This document shows positions 8,213 to 64,000 of a DNA stretch of 64,000 nt, piece after piece (the stretch's first letter is position 1; each line of letters starts with the position of its first letter). The notes under the pieces were generated by a model that saw nothing but the letters and a program-made list of their open reading frames with translations, made no database searches and had not been told where the DNA came from. The translations under genes and the position numbers were made by a program. The stretch lies in contig CM075990.1 of NCBI GenBank assembly GCA_038087875.1, positions 10,914,001-10,978,000 on the forward strand, given 5' to 3'. Source of the DNA: Malacoraja senta (taxonomy: Eukaryota).

Positions 8213-10040
8213 AGAAACATAGCAAGAGTTGGTCATTCAGCCCTTCGAGCCAGCACCACCATTCAATATGATCATGGCTGATCATCCAAAATCAGCTTGT
8301 TCATGCCCCACCGAATTAATTTCCACATACCTGGACTCCATCCTATCCCCTCTGGTCCAATCTCTCCCTATGTCCAAGACACCTCACACGCTCTTCGTCT
8401 CCTCAATGACTTCCGTTTTCCAGGGCTCCACTCCCTCATTTTTTACTATGGATGTCCAGTCACTCAACACCTCCATCCCCCACCAGGAGGGTCTTAAAGC
8501 CCTCCGTTTCTTACTCGACTGCAGAACCAGCCAATTTCCGTCCACCAATACTCTCCTCCGCCTAGCAGAGCTGGTTCTTACCCTCAACAACTTCTCCTTT
8601 CACTCCTCCCACTTCCTCCAGATCCAAGGCATAGCTATGGGCACTCGCACGGTCCCTAGCTATGCCTGTCTCTTTGTTGGGTACGTCAAACAATCCCTGT
8701 TCCAGGCGTACACTGGCCCTATCCCCGAACTCTACCTCCGCTACATTGACGACTGCATTGCTGCTACCTCCTGCACCCATGCAGAACTCATTGACTTCAA
8801 CAAATTCATCACTAATTTCCATCCTGCACTCAAATTCACTTGGACCATCTCCCTACCGTTTCTAGATCTCACCGTCTCCATCACAGGAAACAAACTATTG
8901 ACCGACATCTATTACAAACCTGACTCCCATAGCTATCTTGACTACACTTCTTCCCGTAAAGACTATTCCCTACTTCCAATTCCTCCATCTACGCCGCATC
9001 TGTGCCCAGGATGAGGTGTTCCATACCAGGGCATCGGAGATGTCCTCATTCTTTAGGGAACGGAGGTTCCCCTCTTCCATTATAGATGAGGTTCTCACTA
9101 GGGTCTACTCGATATCCCGCAACTCCGCTCTTACTCCCCTTTCACCCCCCTTTCCCCCTCCCCCATTCGTAACAAGGACAGAGTCCCACTTGTCCTCACC
9201 TTCCACCCCATCAGCCGTCATATACAACATATAATCCTCCAACATTTTCACCACCTCCAATGGGATCCCACCAATGGCCACATCTTCCCATCGCCACCCC
9301 TTTCTGCTTTCCGCAGAGACCGTTCCCTCTGTAAGTCCCTGGTCAACTCGTCCCTTCCCACCCAAACCACCCCTTCCTCAGGAGATGCAATATCTGTCCC
9401 TTTACCTCCCCCATCGACTCCATCCAAGGACCGAAACAGTCTTTCCAAGTGAGGCAGAGGTTCACTTGCAGCTCCTCCAACCTCATCTACTGTATCCGCT
9501 GTTCCAGGTGTCAACTTCTCATCATCGGCGAGACCAAGCGCAGGCTCGACGATCGTTTCGCTGAACACCTCCGCTCAGTCTGCCTTAACCTATCTGATCT
9601 CCTGGTGGCCCAGTACTTCAACTTCCCCTCCCATTCCCAATCTGACCTATGTCCTGGGTCTCCTCCATTTTCAGAGAGGCTCAGCGCAAATTGAAGGAAC
9701 AGCACCTCATATTTCACTTGGGTAGTTTACACCCCAGCGTTATGAACATTGAATTCTCTAACCTCAGATAGCCCTTTCTTTCTCTCTCCTTCCCAGTTCT
9801 CCCACTAGTCTTACTGTCTCCGCCTACATTCTATCTTTGTCCCGCCCCCTCCCCAGATATCAGTCTGAAGAAGGGTCTCGACCCAAAACGTCGCCCATTC
9901 CTCTCCATAGATGCTGCCTGTCCCGCTGAGTTACTCCTGCATTTTGTGTCTACATCCAAAATCAGTACCCTGTTCCGGCTTTTTACCCATATCCCTTGAT
10001 TCCCTTAGCCTAAGAGCTAAATCTAACTCTCTCTTAAAAT
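8213..10040 (-). mobile_element. CR1-type LINE 3' end split by the Penelope insertion (pieces 8213-8295 and 9953-10040)
   Basis: GAAACATAG tail and 3'UTR sequence continue across the TSD and match the copy at 3500-3660. Confidence 0.8.
8296..9952 (+). mobile_element. 5'-truncated Penelope-like retroelement (RT, GIY-YIG endonuclease, 3' pseudo-LTR), frameshifted
   Basis: RT motifs FTMDVQSLNTSIP, QIQGIAMGT, YLRYIDD; GIY-YIG region CSSSNLIYCIRCSRCQLLIIGETKRRLDDRFAEH; terminal repeat 9860-9952; 13-bp TSD CATCCAAAATCAG at 8283-8295 and 9953-9965. Confidence 0.93.
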
Positions 10041-30900: not shown

Positions 30901-32385
30901 CAACATTAAGGACAGCAAAAGTGACCACAGCACCAGGATCCAGTGAGAAGCAGAAAATACTATTCTATCACATTGTTTCTGTTGTAAAGATTCAATGTCA
31001 TTGCACATGGGCTCAGTCACAGCTTTCATGGCCTTTATTGTCTGAGCTCATGATAAATAGTCTGTTCAAATGAAATATCCAATAATGGCCAACACCTGTG
31101 CAACAATCCCAGACATCAGTACCCTTCAGAAAGAATGGAAGGCAGTGGGAGAAAAAGGGATGATGGGCAGTGAGTGTTGTGTTTAAAAAAAAAATGAGGG
31201 ACCACCCTGATGATGCCTTTCCTCTCAGGTGTTAAATAAACAGATTGCTGCTCACAGCTGGACAATGTTATTACTGTTACAGTACATTAATTATTCTCCA
31301 CTACTACCCAGCACCAATTCAAAGTATATGGCCATTAAGGAAATAGAATAAATATATCAAAATAAAGTGAAATTGTCATACAACTCTGAACTTAAATACA
31401 GTGACCTCCATAATGTTTGGGACAAAGACCCGACATTTATTTATTTGCCTCTGTACTTCACAATTTGAGATTTGTAATAGAAAAAAAAAAATCACATGTG
31501 GTTAAAGTGCACATTGTCAGATTTTATTAAAGGGTATTTTTATACATTTTGGTTTCACCAAGTAGAAATTACAGCTGTGTTTATACATAGTCCCCCCATT
31601 TCAGGGGGCCATAATGTTTGGGACACATAGCTTCACAAGTGTTTGTCATTGCTCAGGTGTGTTTAAATGCCTCCTTAATGCAGGTACAAGATATCTCTCA
31701 GCACCTAGTCTTTCCATCACCTTTGGAATATTTTATTGCTGTTTATCAACACGAGGACCAAAGTTGTGAAAGTCAAAGAAACCATTATGAGACCGAGAAA
31801 CTAGAACAAATCTGTTAGAGAGACATCAGCCAAACCTTAGGCTTACCAAAATCAACTGTTTGGAACATCATTAAGAAGAAAGAAAGCACTGGTGAGCGTA
31901 TTAATCGTGAAAGGACTGGCAGGCCAAGGAAGACCTCCACAGCTGATGACAGAAGAATTCTCCCTATATTAAAGAAACATGCCCAAACACCTGTCCGACA
32001 GATCAGAAACAGTCCTCAGGAGTCAGGTGTGGATTTGTCAATGACCACTCTTCGTAGCCATGAACAGAAATACAGAGGCTACACAGCAAGATGCAAACCA
32101 CTGGTTAGCTGCAAAAATAGGATGGCCAGGTTACAGTTTGCCAAGAAGTACTTAACAGAGCAACCACAGTTCTGGAAAAAGGTCTTCTGGACAGATGAGA
32201 TGAAGATCAACTTATATCAGAGTGACGGGAAGAGCAAAATATAGAGAGAAGGAACTGCCCAAGATCCAAAGCACACCACCTCATCTGTGAAACTTGGCGG
32301 CGGGGGTGTTATGGCCTGGGCATGAATGGTTGCTGAAGGTACTGGCTCACTTATCTTTATTGATGATACAACTGCTGATGGTAGT

Positions 32386-32936: not shown

Positions 32937-33958
32937 TCAGACTTCTTTAGCGATTCTTCCATCTTCACCTTCTGGAAGCAAGCATAACTTGATTATTGGT
33001 CTTATTAAAACATTGTGCTTAGTCTGAAGTCGTACTGTGCGCACCAAACCCTTTACGTCAGGCATGATCTCCAGCATCCTTCCCATCAACCAAGAACCTC
33101 GTGACGCAGTAGAATCGACCACCAAAACAATATCACCTGGAACAAAATTTCTTCTAATCCTCGATCATCGTTGTCGCTCTTGGATCAGAGGCAAATATTC
33201 TTCTGTCCATCTCTTCCAAAAAAGATCTGCCATATATTGTAATTGTCTCCTTCTGCATTTTATATACAAATCTTCCTTCACAAAGAGTCCAGGTGGTAGT
33301 ATTGGATTGGTCTTCAACAGAAGAATATGATTTGGTGTAAGCGCTTCCAGGTCGTTTGGATCATCAGAACTCTTAGTAATAGGTCAATCATTTAAAATTG
33401 CTTCAACTTCACAGAATAAAGTTTGTAATCCTTTACCGTCCAGACTTGTTGTTTAAGAACAGAACGTAGCACATTTCAAACCATGCGGATCAACCGTTCC
33501 CATACACCGCCATGATGAGAAGCCGTTGGAGGATTCAAGTTCCATCTTATCCCTTGTTGAAGCATAGCATTCTGGATCTTATCCTGATTTAAGCCTTTAA
33601 GTGTTTCTTTTCATTCTCTTTCAGCTCCAACAAAATTCGAACCATTATCTGATCTTAACGATGAAACTTGACCTCGTCAACAGATAAATCTCTGTAATCA
33701 ATGAATGCAGGAGTCTGTGTCAAGTGTAGATGCAACTTCAAGATGAACTGTTCTACTTGCCATGCAAGTGAAGATTGCACCGTACCTTTTTACAAGGCTT
33801 CATCCTCTCTTCACCTCTATAAGACCGAAATAATCCACCCCCACATCTGTAAATGGAGGCTTTTCTTTCAGGGGTTAAATATTCAGGTAGAATCCTCTCC
33901 AGAGGTAAGTCTGCCATCTTCTGTTCTCCAACTTTTCCACGTTGTCGCCTACACGCAA
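32937..33958 (-). pseudogene. BEL/Pao integrase and C-terminal region, with stops and frameshifts
   Basis: QKMADLPLER, GVDYFG, SDNGSNFVG, HHGGVWERLIR, LTPNHILL, FWKRWTEEYLP and RPIIKLCLL motifs. Confidence 0.92.
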
Positions 33959-35093
33959 CAAACCTTAGGCTTACCAAAATCAACTGTTTGGAACATCATT
34001 AAGAAGGAGAGCACTGGTGAGCTTACTAATCGCAAAGGGACTGGCAGGCCAAGGAAGACCTCCACAGCTGATGACAGAAGAATTCTCTCCATGATGAAGA
34101 AAAATCCCCAAATACCTGTCCGACAAATCAGATACACTATTCAGGAGTCAGGTGAGGATTTGTCAATGACCACTGTCCACAGAAAGCTTCATGAACAGAA
34201 ATACAGAGGCTACACTGCAAGATGCAAACCACTGGCTAGCCGCAAAAATAGGATGGCCAGGTTACAGTTTGCCAAGAAGTACTTAAAAGAGCAACTGCAG
34301 TTCTGGAAAAAGGTCTTGTGGACAGATGAGATGATGATTAACTTATATCAGAGAGATGGCAAGAGCAAAGTATGGAGGAGAGAAGGAACTGCCCAAGATC
34401 CAGAGCATACCACCTCATCTGTGAAACATGGTGGTGGGGGTGTTATGGCCTGGGCATGTATGGCCTCTGAAGGTACTGGCTCATTTATCTTCATTGATGA
34501 TACAACTGCTGATGGTAGTAGCATAATGAATTCTGATGTGTCTAGACACATCCTATCTGCTCAAGTTCAGAAAAATGCCTCAAAACTCATTGGCCGGCGG
34601 TTCATTCTACAGCAAGACAATGATTCCAAAAAGACTGCTAAAGCAACAAAGGAGTTTTTCAAAGCTAAAAAATGGTCAATTCTTGAGTGACCAAGTCAAT
34701 CACTTGATCTGAACCCACTTGAGCATGCCTTTTATATGCTGAAGAGAAAACTGAAGGGGACTAGTGGCCAAAACAAGCATAATCTAAAGATGGCTGCAAT
34801 GGATGGATTTAAGAGAGAGTTAGATAGAGCTCCAGGGGCTAGTGGAGTCAAGGGATATGGGGAGAAGGCAGGCACGGGTTATTGATAGGGGACGATCAAC
34901 CATGATCACAATGAATGGCTGTGCTGGCTCGAAGAGCCGAATGGCCTCCTCCTGCACCTATTTTCTATGTTTCTATGTTTCAATACAGGCTTGGCAGATC
35001 ATCATCAGAGAAGACACCAAGCAACTGGTGATGTCCATGAATCGTAGACTTCAAGCAGTCATTGCATGCAAAGGACAGGCAACAAAATACTAA
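33959..35093 (+). pseudogene. Tc1 DD34E transposase remnant
   Basis: GRPRKT, LWTDE, VKHGGGGVMAW and QQDND motifs; TGA at 34688-34690 in place of the W of WPSQS; CR1 insertion at 34801-34980. Confidence 0.92.
34801..34980 (+). mobile_element. CR1 LINE 3' tail inserted in the Tc1 transposase
   Basis: (CTATGTTT)n tail, CAAT duplicated at both junctions. Confidence 0.85.
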
Positions 35094-36331: not shown

Positions 36332-36427
36332 CAATGGAGTATGTGTAGTCCATCTTGAATTTCGCTTAATGGCACCAACAACACTATTTATTTCACCTTG
36401 CACAATATAAATGCCTTTATCGATCAT
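36332..36427 (-). CDS. GBF1: GBF1 first canonical coding exon (exon 2; whole exon 36332-36437 with 10 nt 5'UTR)
   Basis: Translates to MIDKGIYIVQGEINSVVGAIKRNSRWTTHTPL, near-identical to the vertebrate GBF1 N-terminus as I recall it (human MVDKNIYIIQGEINIVVGAIKRNARWSTHTPL). Acceptor ttcttgttgcag, donor TTG|gtaagt, phase 0. Confidence 0.97.
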
Positions 36428-39489: not shown

Positions 39490-40300
39490 CACCATATAAA
39501 CGGCACCTGGGCGTTGCACTGTCGCCGTGCAGGGGGTTGCGAGATGGCAAGTGGGGAGAGTAGCTGGATCACGAAGACGAAGAGGGTGAAACAGGCCGAC
39601 TTACCCCCCAGGGCAGCTTCCAACACATCCAAAATGGCGGCCTGGATACCGCAGCGGCTGCCGGTGGGCAGTGGGCACACCGAGACACCCTGCCTCAGTG
39701 ACGGCCTCGGACATTAAACCCAGCGGCGGGCCTTTGCCAACCTCAGTGCCCGGCCCCAGGGTTGGTGAGGATCGGTTGGTTGGTTGGGCGGGCGGGCGGA
39801 CGGGCGGGCGGGCGGACGCAGAGCGAGCGGCTGCCTGGGAACCGGCACGGCCTGCGTGACGTGTTACGCGGGCCACCCACCTAACTTGCTGGCGGCCGCC
39901 CCGATTGACGGCCCGGCGAGCCAATCGGACACCGCTCAGCGAGAAGACCCGGCGGTACTGACCAATCATCGCCATGAGGAGGCGGGATCTTTGGATCAAG
40001 TTTGATTGACCCAAGAGCGCTTCGCAAAGGCCGTTGGGACGAGGCACTTTAATTGGTATTTCCTCAAACTCGCCCAGAGACTGGGACAGGATCAGATCCC
40101 GGGCATGGATCTTACTCTGCACCGTGCAACGTCTCCGGCTCATACCAGACCGTGCACTCACTGCCGAGAACTTCTCTTGCGTTGTATTATTTTGTTTATG
40201 TCTGATCCAATGCCCCAGCTGTGAACTCTGCTCACTGCACAGTGAACCTTGAACTCTGTGCAGTCTATGTTGGCACTTAAGATAATGACGTGGCACATTA
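39490..40300 (-). promoter_or_regulatory. CpG-island promoter of GBF1
   Basis: High GC and CpG density, GGGCGG repeats (39786-39815), TGACGTG at 39857-39863, CCAAT boxes near 39921 and 39962, TGACGTGGC at 40286-40294. Confidence 0.85.
39605..39850 (-). other. GBF1: GBF1 exon 1 (5' leader; 5' end approximate)
   Basis: Strong donor GGG|gtaagt at 39605/39604 inside a CpG island 3.2 kb upstream of exon 2. YY1-type motif GCCGCCATTTT at 39631-39641. TSS position is inferred. Confidence 0.75.
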
Positions 40301-41916
40301 TGAAATGTTGCCCGTTTCCATTGTTTTGCAATGTACCAATAGAAGCAATAATTAATAAACATAATAAACATAAGACGTATTGGTGGAATCAATCTAAGAA
40401 CTACAAACACTGCTCACCTCTTCAGTGAATCCTATCATCTGAACGTTCCAGCTTCAACCCCATTCCAGCTACTTGTACACAGAAAGGGCACAGATCCTGC
40501 CTTTCGGATTCCCTTGTACTGCCTTGGGGGGAAAGGTGGACGTAAAGAGTGTTATTACTATTTAAACCCAGCCACTATCACGAAATTTATTATCTAGCCA
40601 TGGCCATATTTCTGTTCGAGGAAGCTTGCTGTGTGCAAATTGGCCCGCAGGTTTGCGACTTTGCTGTGTGTACATATTGTTCATCAGTTGAATGATGTTC
40701 CGCGACCGTTTCAAAGTAATGTGAAAGATTGCATGTAAATGCTAGACATTCCTTACAGCGTGGCACAGTCTAATAGGCACGAAGACAGGTGCACATCACG
40801 ATAAAAGGTTTTATGATGGTGTGGACCCTTTTTCGATCAATCCGAAATGAAAATGTCAAGATAGGTATTTGAAAATAAATCAATTGAAAGGTTAAGGCCA
40901 GGTTGATTGGTTTACATTTTATCCCACGGTTAAAATACAGCGTAATTCAAAGTAATTTAAATCAAGTTAGCAAAGAACATTTAAGAATAACATTGGCTTG
41001 AAACTTTTGACTCTGCCCACTGCCTCGTATTTTGTGTTGGAAATATGCACCGTGCAATATTTAACACTCGCCTACCAGTTGTCCCCAGCGAGATTAACTG
41101 CGATGCAAATTTCTTTTTCCGCCTATTCCAGAATTTATGTTTAAATTTTAAATAGTAATTTTTAAAATCAGTCTTCATAGCGCCGCTCGATGTTGGATTT
41201 CTGATGTAGAACAGTTGCAGATCAACCGCTTCTTTATCTACAAAAGGTAAATAGATGCTCAGTCCAGAGGTGGCCATTTTCCCCTATTGTGAACTTGTTA
41301 ATGTTCAGCCCGGTGGATCCGTGCATGTATATTCAGAGATCCAATCCAATCTCCCACAACTCTTCTGAATGAATCGGGGATGGGTAAGGCGGGGGCGGGG
41401 AGAGAAGGGGGTGGTAGCTGGGACGCGGTGTACTGCGGTGGGCCGGACCTCTCCGCTCACACAGTGGTCGCGTCGTTTCGCAGCAGCCGATGGTATTGGC
41501 ATAAAATCAATCCTTCCAGCAAATGGGATCGCATAGCTTGGGTTTCACTGAGACTCTCCGAGCAACTGCAAGGACCTGCCGCGTGTTTTCGAAGGAACTC
41601 TTAATTCTGACAGCTCCAGGAATCTCTAATCTTCGGTAAACTTATCCTATCCCTGGATTTATTCATTTAAAGAGGAATTTGCTGTAAGTGATTATCAGTA
41701 TCGACCTTCTCACTGATAAATGTTTGAGAATCGTTTTTCTTTCCTGTTGCCTTGCCCTGTGCCTGTACTGTACATCTCAACAATTGATATTTGTATCTAT
41801 ATAATGTATATAATACAATGCGTTATTTCTCAAACAGGAAATCCCCTTAATCCACGATATGTAGTTCAGCTGTAGCCCGCATTAAATGCATTTTCGGCAA
41901 ATGTTTTGGGCCAGTA

Positions 41917-44459: not shown

Positions 44460-44559
44460 GGTCTGTGATTAGGTGCATCTGGAGCGCGCTCTATAAGCCA
44501 CCAGTCCGAGGGTAGAGAGCACTGAATGGGAATAAAACATTACAGAGAAAATGTCCAAG
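44460..44559 (+). promoter_or_regulatory. Candidate PITX3 core promoter and short first exon
   Basis: GATTAG homeodomain-type site (~44467), TATA-like CTATAAG (44491-44497), then ~40 nt ending in a strong donor AAG|gtgagc at 44559/44560, 3.2 kb upstream of the coding exon. Motif evidence only. Confidence 0.45.
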
Positions 44560-46212: not shown

Positions 46213-46653
46213 AAATAGGCACAAAAAGCTGAAGTAACTCAGCGAGACAGGCATCATCTCTGGAGAGAAGAGATGGGTGACGTTTTGGGTCGAGATTCTC
46301 TCTCTGTCTTTCTCTGTCTCTGTCCCCCCCCCCCCCCCCCCCCCCGCTCTCTGTTTCTCTCGTTCTCTGTCTCTGTATCTCTCTCTCTCTCTCCTCTCTC
46401 CCCCATCTTTCTCGAAAAAGAGTTAAAACGGATGTCACAAAACCGCGCTCGGATTTATTTAACAAATAACGACGGTATTATAACCATCCTGTTTCGAGGA
46501 TCTAATGACAATTCCAAACCAGGATCGTGGCGAGATCTCGACCCGAAACGTCACCCATTCCTTCTCTCCAGAGATGCTGTCTGTCCCACTGAGTTGCGCC
46601 TGCTTTTTGTGTCTATCTTCGGTTTAAAACAGCATCCGCAGTTCCTTCCTACA
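46213..46653. mobile_element. Inverted Penelope terminal repeats enclosing non-element DNA
   Basis: Arms ~46218-46295 and ~46535-46653; 16-bp TSD CATTGTTTGTAAGTAA (46197-46212, 46654-46669). Confidence 0.85.
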
Positions 46654-47784
46654 CATTGTTTGTAAGTAATACTTCTCCTCAAACATTGGATCTGCCTGGC
46701 GACACCTCCCTGACAGTTGTCTGGGTCTACACCTTTGTAGAAATCACATCTATTTGCATCGTTTTTTATCACGTTTCGAGCTACATCTCAAAAACGTTGT
46801 AGAGTCAATAAATTGTTTCACGGAATGAATATATTAGCTAATATATAGACAAACTATAGACATGTGCGCTTAGGAAATAAGATTCGCCGTGGCAAAAAGG
46901 ATTAAAGTCTCTGCTTTCTTGATAGTCAGAAAAAAGTAAATATACACTGACTCTCTTGATCACTGTAATTATAGGACCACAATTTATCAAAGTTAATGTC
47001 GTGTTTAACTGCAGTAGAATGTGTGTTTGCTCGGATTTTAGTGCAAACGTCTTGTTGTGAAGTGCGGAATAAGATCCAATGAAGTCCACATTATAGTGGA
47101 CTATACGTCCGGGCGTTGCTTGCTGTTTTGTTTTGTTAAGGAAAGATAATATGAACCACAGTAAATGGAGTCAAAAAAACACAAAGTGCTGGAGTAACTC
47201 AGCCGGTCGGGTAGCATCTCTGGTGGACATGGATATGTGATGTTTCGGGTCGGGATCCTACTGAAGAGTGAGGAGAGTCGAATTTTACTAAAAATATCGC
47301 AAGACGTTGTTATAGACAAGGAGGGCAATCGATTAGTGATTCTCGTCACGATTCGCATAGAATGGGAGACCCATCCAATTTGAACTTTCAATTTGACGGC
47401 GTCTCCGCTGTGAATCGCTGTGAATCGAACGGGAAAGATAAAGAAAAAAGAGTGAGAACGGATGTCACAAAACCGCGCTCGGATTTATTTAACAAATAAC
47501 GACGGTATTATAACCAACCTGTTTCGAGGATCTAATGACATTTCCAAACCAGGGTCGTGGCGTGATGTATGTTATTAACTTTATTTTGAGTTAGAAAATG
47601 TTTTAAATGATGAATTCCCAGGTAAAGATTGTAGCTGCCCAATCCAACAACAAAAAAATCACAGTGGCAATAAGCCGGCGCAGACAGAATCACAGAAGGG
47701 AGAGTCTTTGTTTAGGTTGGGTTTGCAGATGTACGTTGACTTGACTTTGCATCGCGTTTTATTTTTGCAGCACAGACGCATCGA

Positions 47785-47912
47785 ATGGAATATAACTTGT
47801 CGAGTGGAGTTCTGACCGACTCGGATGCTCCTGATCACAGCCCGATGACTCTCTCAGATTCCGGGACCCCACAAAGAGAATCCATCTGCAAAGCACACCA
47901 GGGAGAGCAGCG
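47785..47912 (+). CDS. PITX3: PITX3 N-terminal coding exon (exon 47771-47912); too short for the ORF track
   Basis: [42 protein letters not shown] resembles Pitx3 N-termini (fish [26 protein letters not shown]..CKGQ; human [24 protein letters not shown]...CKGQEHSD). Acceptor ttttatttttgcag, donor CG|gtaagc. Head-to-head with GBF1 as in human. Confidence 0.9.
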
Positions 47913-50900
47913 GTAAGCTGGTCATTTTTTAACTTGCGAATGGATGCAACTTCTCTGGGGCAAGGATAGGAAGGGGTGAGAGGAAGAGGAAGGGGGAGAA
48001 GAGGAGAGACGAGAGCTGACGCACCTCCATCAAGAAGGTACAAAATCACTATCAGAAACGGCGACAATTTGGTAGAAAAATGTCTTAACAGCTAAAGTAG
48101 CATCAATGATTGGAAAAGAACCAATGATGTTAGATCCCGCGACATCTAGTGGTCGTTTGGACGATGAAAGACCCTCGGTGAAGCAACAAACGGGGGTTCA
48201 TTGTTCTCAATGAATATTACCAACCCTGCCTGTCACTTCTCCCCTGACCTACCCCCTGACTGCTAAGTTTTAAACAAAGGTCTTGATAATCTCGTCGGGG
48301 TTGTCATAAGGCTGCGATGACCATTCCCTTCACTCATTCACATTACAACTAAAATTCAGCAAATTGAAAAAGGAGATTCTGTAGGGTTAGGAGCTAGGAT
48401 GAGCTGGTGCCTTATCACAATATTAATTTAACACCGTGGCACGCTAGATTTCATGCTACCTAGTCTGGACACGCCGAAACATCTGTCCGGGGTCAATTTC
48501 AGCTCGCCATCACACTCTTGTAATTCTCGATAAAGCATAACGAGAACACTCATGCTTAATTACTTCCGAGCGGTACCGCATACTCAGGGAATAGCCCTAA
48601 GTGTCCGTATTGAAACTGCTTTTTATTTTTGCTCGGCCGCTTGTGAATCGCATATTGGGAAATAATAAAACAGGATCTTATTAGTGCAGGTACCATTATT
48701 CCTTGATATATTATGCCAGTGGCAAAATCTTTACATTTATTTTGTAAATGCCTGGCACGTAAACTGGCCGCTTTTTGCGTGAGCAGGGGACAAGTAACCG
48801 TACAAAGTAGTTTCTTGGACAAATTACTTCGGATTTACCAAAGCTCGTAACGTTAAAAATAGAATGGTTAAAATATGTTAGAAAAAAAAAAGTCAACAAA
48901 TCGTTTATTCCTATAACAACATAATCGTAACTTGGCAAACAGGCATCTGCAGTTTCTTGTGTCTACATCGTAACTATCACGTTATTGATGTTAAATATTA
49001 TTACTGTAACAATATCTTTATATGATGAAACTATCAATATAAATAGAGATACCTATTGAGCACTGAATCATTTGCAAAGATCAGAATTTTTCGGTCAATC
49101 TATGGACAAAAATACCGATAAATCGTAACAAAAATATGTGTAAATATATTTAATTAAGCGAGAAAGAGTATAAATCGCGGGAGTATATATAGCGAGCCTG
49201 ATTAAACTCATATTGTTACTCGATAATGTAGCAAGGAGGAATGTGGCCGGGATGTGTTTAAACTTGAGAGCCCGCGCCACCATCCCCTCCCCCTCCCATC
49301 CCCCACTCCCGGGAATAGATCTGGGTAAAGACATCAAATACAAAGTGGGGTAAATCTCGGTCTAAGTCGCACGAATTTCCCCAAAGAATCCACAGAACCG
49401 CCAAATTAATTGTAACTGCATAGTACGTTACGCGGTATTATCAGCCTGTCCGCGGGCCTCTCTGGTGTAATTTCCACCAAGCCAGCGTTGTTTTTGCGCA
49501 TATGCGTTAATACCGCTGAAGACTAGAGTGAAGAGTTTTTAACTGGCAAGCGTCCCAGCAGTAGAAAATTAAATGTGCATGTATTACACGCTGCAGCTCC
49601 GCGGGCCCATGAACTCATTAACATACAATAATTAATAATACAATAAATCAATAATGAGTAATAATGGGTAATCAGACCATAATGCAAAACCGAAGTCACA
49701 TTTCCTTACTGGCGATGGTTAATGCCAACAGTTTGCAGCGATATTGTCCCAGGTCAGAAATACATCTGGCTATTTTATTTACAACCCTGACAATGCAAAT
49801 TAAAAAGGAGAGCATGTGCTGCTTAAATAAATACAGCAAAATATTTGGAAACAATTGCTCTTCATTCCAAAGCGCGAACTGGATTCCCATTCAGAACAAA
49901 TGAGAGCAAACGTTGTTACGATTTTCCTATAACGGTTTTCCTATAAGTTCTTCACTTCCCGGAGAAAGGATAGATTCTCCTTTTTAAAGAGCCCTTGGCG
50001 CCGTTTTTTTATTTGGTGAAAATTGGAAGTAAAATAATTGCTGTCCCCCTCCTAAAGATTTCAAAAGTAACATATTCCCAACGTGACCAGCTGGCTTCCA
50101 CTAAATGAAGGTTAAAGTTTGCACTGTTTCAGAAAATATATATATATAAACCTTATATAAACCTCCTTCATATTATCTGTTTATACCGAACACTTGCTTG
50201 CGGGGTCTAGTCGAGCGCCTTTTCGTTTTGTCTTGGGGGAATGGCCTCCTGAGTTTGACTGGGGATTAGCCCAGACTTCGTGAGTAGTATAAAGCATACA
50301 CTTCAACAAAGATCAAACAAGAGCGGGCCATTTCCGCTTGCAAACACAGATAGCACCATATTTTGGACATTTTCTCCAACTCCCCCCCCCCCCCCCACTC
50401 CCTAATGCCAGGCCGTGAGGTGAGGAGAAATGTGCATATCCTGTCCTTCCCGGCTTTTGGAAGTAGGACATTTAATTGAATTGGAACGAGTTGATTAAAA
50501 GGGATTGGCGGCGCCGCGATCTGACACGCAATGGGATCTCTGTTTAAAAACCATCAAAATATTTACTTTCCAAAAGCTAATCTTTCACTGACAGATCAGT
50601 CACATCTTTATTTGTTGGACTTCTGAGCACACAATAAAAAAGAGAAAAGTGAGACGGGAAGAAAACGAAAAGGGCTAAAAAAACAGACAGGGAGTGGCGT
50701 GTATGTGGGGTCCGGGCCGGATTACAAGGGGTGGACTGTCACATATTCCACTTGAAATCAATTTTATCAAAGTCAGCCAATCGGGCCCTCACGTTTGCGC
50801 TGATTTGGTGGCTTACTTGTCTTTATTCGTGAATGCCATTTGAAGTATTGACCAGTTTATGATATTTGCAGGTCAATCATAGCACGATAGTTAATAAGAC

Positions 50901-53405: not shown

Positions 53406-53605
53406 NNNNNNNNNNNNNNNNNNNNNNNNNNNNNNNNNNNNNNNNNNNNNNNNNNNNNNNNNNNNNNNNNNNNNNNNNNNNNNNNNNNNNNNNNNNNNNN
53501 NNNNNNNNNNNNNNNNNNNNNNNNNNNNNNNNNNNNNNNNNNNNNNNNNNNNNNNNNNNNNNNNNNNNNNNNNNNNNNNNNNNNNNNNNNNNNNNNNNNN
53601 NNNNN
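53406..53605. other. Assembly gap (200 N)
   Basis: Run of N with a round length; true size unknown. Confidence 1.
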
Positions 53606-62815: not shown

Positions 62816-64000
62816 TCTTTCTTTATTTAGCCATTTCATTGTTTCATTATAGAATGAAATTAATTTGCATAAACTATCTGAAGTATACTTAAGGCAAAGC
62901 TCTGTATGCGCTGAAACTCAAGTTCAGAAGCAATTTGATCAGTGGTAGGTTGCACAGTAGTTTATTTGAAACGGGATAACATGTTGGATGAGTTATTTTT
63001 GTAACCCTAGCTTCGAAATCATCTTTGACATTTGCTTTTAATGTGGTTTGCCTGGGTGATTTACTGTTGAGCAAAGTCTAAATGAAATGCTGCTGCAACA
63101 TCAAATGAAATAATTATTTTTGTTGGCTGCTGTTAAAACAAATGTTCTTTCTATCTGGGGAGAGCGGATAAACCCCACCCCCATGTGGAAATTATTGACA
63201 CAAAAAAAATGGTGCTAGGATTGTGTCCGGAGCACTGGCATGACTCAGAAATTAAGAATAATAATGTTTATATTTGAGTGCTTCATTATAACTAAGCTTA
63301 GCAATCTGGCCTGGTCACAGAAAACACTTGTACATTTTATTTCTTTACCCAACGTATTACTGGACCATGGAAGTTGTTTGGTTTCTTTCTCGAGGAAGGA
63401 TAGCCTTGCCTTTGAGAATGTATAACAATGGTTCAGTGGGAGTGGTTAAAGGAGAGATCGTTGTATCTGAGAAGAGAACTGGAGGGATATTTGAAGAACA
63501 GTAAGATATCAGGCTGTGAAGGGCAGTGGGATTAGTTTACAAAATGTTGCAGCTAAAAGCTATCAGGAGCCTATTCGAACTATATGATCTTCTGGATTCC
63601 AACAACCTGATGTTTGTTGACTGACTATGGGTTATCAGAGAAGCATGATTGTGATAACTATAGAAAGAGCAAACCACAGCAAACCTGTGAAGAAATGCCA
63701 ATGGCTCTATGCAAACACAATTTCCCCCCCTCTATACCACTGGAAACGTTAGCTTAGGTAAATTTGAGCGAAGTAAGAAAAATATGAGGCAGTGGATATG
63801 TTGATAGGGTGAGATAAAGAAAGTATAATGTAATCCTGTGAGGTAAATAATGACTGACGTGGACACGATTGATGAAGAGGCCATTTCTATGCTGTAAATT
63901 CTTTGTGATTCTTTCAAAATTGATGAAGATGCCTTGATAATCTGTTCCTTGCAGTTCCGAGCGACATGGGGAGTCTGATTTGAGCTTCTGGCTTACAGTT

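Follow-up and report, generated by a model that had tools for sequence, protein, structure and literature searches.

The first coding exon of pitx3 in the Malacoraja senta assembly carries one G too many in a short G run and consequently appears frameshifted. The extra G is very probably an assembly artifact, a consensus error at a homopolymer, in an otherwise ordinary pitx3, and it most likely represents no real biological feature. A consensus error is favored because all of the sequencing runs examined, including one that is nearly identical to the assembly, lack the G. Positions below are those of the window, that is, the whole stretch of 64,000 nucleotides that was analyzed.

The apparent frameshift

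The features at the center of the argument are the following.

47771..47912, plus strand: first coding exon of pitx3, with its ATG at 47785 and a length of 142 nt as assembled; contigs of runs X2 and X23 (see below) align from 47771
47901..47903, plus strand: G run forming the apparent frameshift, GGG in the window versus GG in all four runs examined
47913..47918, plus strand: splice donor gtaagc, in use in relatives; the loose ends of the X2 and X23 contigs follow the window to 47912
47290..47294, plus strand: intronic A run, five A's in the window versus four in run X1, the only other indel among the differences listed

From the ATG (47785-47787) to the donor (CG/gtaagc, with its GT at 47913), the window holds 128 nt, which is phase 2, and the read-through frame gives a 43-residue peptide that stops at the TAA at 47914-47916. 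The initial annotation had likewise given 128 nt, phase 2, and an immediate stop on read-through. It had also taken the exon to start at the ATG, which is not the case: the exon begins at 47771, directly after an acceptor, ttttgcag, that ends at 47770. Minus the extra G, the exon measures 141 nt, or 47 codons, and in relatives it is in phase 1 at both ends. As assembled, the window exon does not end in the phase 1 expected before the homeobox exon; phase 1 follows from exon length in runs X1 and X6, and in X2 and X23 it is read directly from the junction.

Where does the surplus base lie? All losses of 1, 4, or 7 nt within the exon were tried, and residues 1-42 of Leucoraja erinacea Pitx3 (P0002, XP_055517764.1) are restored only by the loss of 1 nt at 47901, 47902, or 47903, three equivalent positions; no position does so for a loss of 4 or 7 nt. 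The small insertion that had been suspected near 47890-47903 thus comes down to one extra G within 47901-47903. Two repairs of the frame had been offered along with it. Removal of a single nucleotide does bring back the peptide of the relatives, but the alternative, loss of the four letters ACAC, must be wrong because only a 1-nt loss in the G run yields those 42 residues. At the break, skate Pitx3 proteins read CKAHQESSDNEK, whereas the window reads 9 residues followed by a stop. Its frame there runs GEQR-stop, as against ESSDNEK in the Pitx3 proteins of L. erinacea and Amblyraja radiata.

What about other donors? Alternative phase-1 GT or GC donors exist at 47888, 47921, 47936, and 47960, and none of them outscores the donor at 47913 by a crude count over 7 positions. 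The last three also lie past the in-frame TAA, and the transcripts of relatives splice at 47913.

The homeobox exon gave no motif match in the 64-kb window, and residues 43-298 of P0002 gave no tblastn match there at an E value of 0.5 or better; the exon lies either beyond position 64000 or inside an assembly gap of 200 N's at 53406-53605. This gap is within the pitx3 intron, and if the homeobox exon is beyond the window, the intron that follows 47912 is longer than 16 kb. Pfam returned no domain for the two short exon peptides. An exact look-up of the 43-residue frameshifted peptide in a protein collection found it absent, a result that had no control and is hence uninformative.

Sequencing runs over the exon

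Sampled words from the window led to 24 runs, four of which (X1, X2, X6, and X23) were compared with the window over 47270-49200. All four consist of assembled contigs rather than raw reads, and rare or second alleles drop out of contigs. Run X1 contains 0.88 of 33 sampled words, and the other runs contain 0.12 or less. The initial annotation had named reads lacking the extra base as the observation that would speak against it, and all four runs examined, in the form of contigs, lack that base.

The X1 contig over 47457-49200 (1,744 nt) differs from the window by two other letters and one gap, and the gap is a single base missing at 47901, with a depth of 24.1 of 24.1. Run X6 comes from a relative, departing from the window by 75 other letters and 23 gaps between 47514 and 49125; there, too, the base at 47901 is missing, at a depth of 7.7 of 7.7. 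Among the differences listed between the window and X1 are indels at 47290 and 47901 and substitutions at 48986 and 49033, with one further A-to-G place counted. Both listed indels are in homopolymers in which the window is one base longer (five A's against four, three G's against two). Run X6 covers three of the listed differences (47901, 48986, and 49033) and agrees with X1 at all three, so that the window has the odd letter at each; this is a weak hint, with a chance of one in eight if the situation is symmetric. The two substitutions could simply mean that the window is another real haplotype than X1.

None of the runs listed is recorded as RNA; X2 and X23 are putatively RNA, their contigs being cDNA-like. 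These align over 47771-47902 and then continue in an identical loose end, the first nine letters of which equal the window at 47904-47912. Past 47912 the loose end matches nothing in 47270-49200; translated by hand, it gives ESSDNEKSQQ, as in P0002. The contigs of both runs therefore have two G's, use the donor at 47913, and complete an Asp codon across a phase-1 boundary, in agreement with the phase 1 that the initial annotation had expected from human PITX1, PITX2, and PITX3. A separate, short X2 contig (105 nt, depth 5.9) at 47700-47795 on the plus strand crosses the acceptor at 47771 into the upstream intron; it may reflect intron retention, a different start, or DNA contained in the run.

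The gene and its neighborhood

The 42-residue peptide of the window matched one protein among two candidates, Pitx3 of Hemitrygon akajei (97%, E value of 2.5e-16). That protein belongs to a cluster of 36 members, 15 of which were aligned; the Pitx3 proteins used for comparison are mostly annotation predictions. Residues 1-39 are identical to those of L. erinacea Pitx3 (39/39, tblastn E value of 8e-21), and A. radiata Pitx3 (P0009, XP_032868464.1) is identical at 44 of 44 residues from the acceptor on, with both matches ending at 47901. Identity of this extent means that the window exon is not a chance open reading frame. An alignment with other skates, rays, and sharks had been recommended beforehand, and in it the frame is intact in all 13 elasmobranch Pitx3 proteins that have this exon. 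Every one of these 13 has the Asp of D-x-EK as its residue 43; they come from nine named shark, ray, and skate species among the 15 of 36 cluster members examined. The remaining 2 of the 15 have a different first exon joined at DNEK, and the exon boundary is placed at DNEK for that reason.

By these comparisons, the gene in the window is the orthologue of pitx3, a member of the PITX paired-like homeobox family, as the initial annotation had proposed; the 39/39 identity and the head-to-head position of gbf1 both bear this out. It has the same exon peptide as L. erinacea and A. radiata Pitx3 up to the G run and the same gbf1 neighbor, and it differs from them by one extra G. In a tree built without Pitx1, P0002 and P0009 fall among the pitx3 proteins (support of 91/92 for 11 rows). 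In P0002, the homeodomain (PF00046) and the OAR motif (PF03826), which belong to exons farther downstream in the gene, are both present. Sharks carry a second, “pitx3-like” gene (P0116, P0094, and P0139-P0141), which makes up a clade (100/100) separate from both pitx3 and pitx2. P0116 is identical to the window peptide at only 8 of 23 residues. As the tree is one without Pitx1, this gene may correspond to pitx1 or represent a fourth paralogue of the family.

Three further features lie upstream of the exon.

41659..41683, plus strand: 3′ end of an upstream pitx3 exon, with a donor, gtaagt, at 41684; an X23 contig joins it to 47771
44526..44559, plus strand: alternative first coding exon of pitx3, 11 codons plus G, with a phase-1 donor, gtgagc
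36332..36427, minus strand: first coding exon of gbf1, 96 nt, frame intact, with a donor, gtaagt, head to head with pitx3

A 213-letter loose end in X23 puts the 5′ end of the upstream exon at about 41470, and the N terminus of a Scyliorhinus torazame protein (P0012) matches 41450-41612. The first 11 residues encoded at 44526-44559 match isoform X1 of Amblyraja (P0009; tblastn E value of 9e-5). A third match, to the N terminus of Mobula X1 pitx3 (9/10 residues, E value of 2e-4), is found at 40490-40519 on the plus strand. Taken as sequence matches, the stretches at 40490-40519, 41450-41683, and 44526-44559, all on the plus strand, suggest several alternative first exons of pitx3.

The peptide of the gbf1 exon is 97% identical to GBF1 of Amblyraja, Cetorhinus, and others, and in S. 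torazame the pitx3 and gbf1 genes have adjacent locus tags (scyTo_0001012 and scyTo_0001011 being the pair). Between gbf1 on the minus strand and pitx3 on the plus strand, 39700-40050 is GC rich with CCAAT-like motifs, as judged by eye, and is likely a promoter region shared by the two genes. The intron upstream of the pitx3 exon contains a direct repeat of 122 nt (46415-46536 and 47445-47566), with copies 1,030 nt apart and 95% identical. Two Tc1-like transposase frames (Pfam HTH_Tnp_Tc3_2, E values of 5e-11 and 2e-17) occupy 31819-32244 and 33698-34690 on the plus strand, 3′ of the gbf1 first coding exon. Farther off, 8223-9694 on the plus strand holds broken frames resembling a reverse transcriptase and a GIY-YIG-type endonuclease, as in Penelope-like elements; Pfam at an E value of 0.001 found nothing in two frames of this stretch.

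Consensus error or real variant?

How would an ordinary pitx3 come to look broken? The read consensus would have overcalled a two-G run by one base. The animal's own pitx3 would then have GG, its exon would end in phase 1 at the donor at 47913, and it would be joined to an exon continuing DNEKSQQ into the homeodomain. The resulting Pitx3 would be a normal protein of about 298 residues with a homeodomain and an OAR motif. Of the four causes offered in the initial annotation, assembly error is the one favored here, with the G missing from X1 at its full depth.

The GGG at 47901-47903 is a mononucleotide run, the type of site that qualifies for a consensus indel. Long reads are known to be error prone at homopolymers, according to a study of human HiFi assemblies (PMC12212083). 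The present case resembles such errors in that a mononucleotide run is one base longer and the base is absent from near-identical read data, and the second indel listed against X1, at 47290, is of the same kind; it differs in that the run here is only two bases long, whereas homopolymer errors typically arise in longer runs. The same study found that about 78% of frameshifted genes were supported as true variants when human HiFi assemblies were left unpolished, in a set that includes polymorphic families such as OR, KRT, and FAM (PMC12212083). A frameshift in a high-quality assembly is thus often real, which counts against an error and in favor of a null allele.

Such an allele, a real, private, and likely heterozygous +1 G on the assembled haplotype, is improbable here but is the strongest of the alternatives. 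Contigs conceal a second, heterozygous allele, and the two substitutions and one intronic indel that separate the window from X1 are as expected between two haplotypes. GGG nevertheless occurs in none of the four runs examined, and this cause, also put forward at the outset, keeps only a small chance. X1 is the only listed run with at least half of the sampled words, and its share of 0.88 fits a loss of words over this site. Null alleles of conserved developmental genes are expected to be far rarer than consensus indels, and it is this expectation that sets the probability of a null allele so low. If it did exist and were spliced as in X2 and X23, the following exon would bring a stop with its first complete codon, yielding a 43-residue peptide without a homeodomain and likely leading to nonsense-mediated decay. 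As reported in the available part of one study, loss of Pitx3 function in mice causes microphthalmia and aphakia, and the truncating allele miak is recessive, so that carriers can exist (PMC4210183). Like this nonsense allele (PMC4210183), the skate G, if real, would truncate Pitx3; unlike it, the G would cut before the homeodomain, and it has no read support among the four runs.

Far less probable still is a frameshift fixed in the lineage, with the exon dead and Pitx3 made from isoforms that bypass it, either by starting from a first exon farther downstream, of which Amblyraja isoform X3 is an example, or by skipping of the phase 1-1 exon. Isoforms joined at DNEK without the exon are indeed annotated in Amblyraja (P0014) and Scyliorhinus canicula (P0006), though their first exons have no match in the window at an E value of 0.5 or better and may lie beyond it. 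Skipping 47771-47912 would keep the frame, since the end of the exon at 44526-44559 is likewise in phase 1, and an alternative muscle exon 1 is described for mouse Pitx3 in the accessible text of PMC3411649. However, X1, two letters and one gap away from the window over 1,744 nt, has GG and would have to be another species. A real G would need to have become fixed in a skate species that is not the one behind X1 yet is very close to it, leaving the main isoform dead and only the bypass isoforms in use, which is hardly credible. The exon also lacks the marks of a pseudogene or lost exon: the G is in 0 of 4 runs, and there is no amino-acid change relative to Leucoraja over residues 1-39 and hence no further decay of the coding sequence. 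The lineage-specific exon loss suggested earlier is accordingly very unlikely.

Equally remote is a real G that is compensated, either by a one-base shift of the homeobox exon's acceptor, a shifted acceptor being what the initial annotation had considered, or by a noncanonical GA donor right after 47902. The window offers no homeobox acceptor to read, the letters past 47902 (GAGAGC) are GA-donor-like, and GA donors occur in FGFR genes; the shifted acceptor is unsupported, however, because in X2 and X23 the exon with GG, spliced at 47913, is joined to a phase-1 acceptor, a GA donor at 47903 would delete the ESS present in skate P0002 and P0009, and in X1 the G is missing altogether. A GA-AG intron at 47903 was also rejected on the cDNA-like contigs, which continue to 47912 and then reach the GT donor, with the exon ending after ESS.

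Significance

In titles and abstract openings of the literature on pitx3 in skates, sharks, and cartilaginous fish, no loss is reported, and one may be in print. If the G were real and fixed and the exon bypassed, one isoform of a regulator of the lens and of dopamine neurons would be naturally knocked out. A real and fixed G, for which the chance is very slight, would place a natural loss in a gene that the mouse lens requires, as described in the available text of PMC4210183, and would surprise specialists. If, as is very probable, it is an error, the matter is one of curation: left uncorrected, the G breaks the pitx3 gene model and could be miscounted as the loss of a gene when shark and skate genomes are compared.
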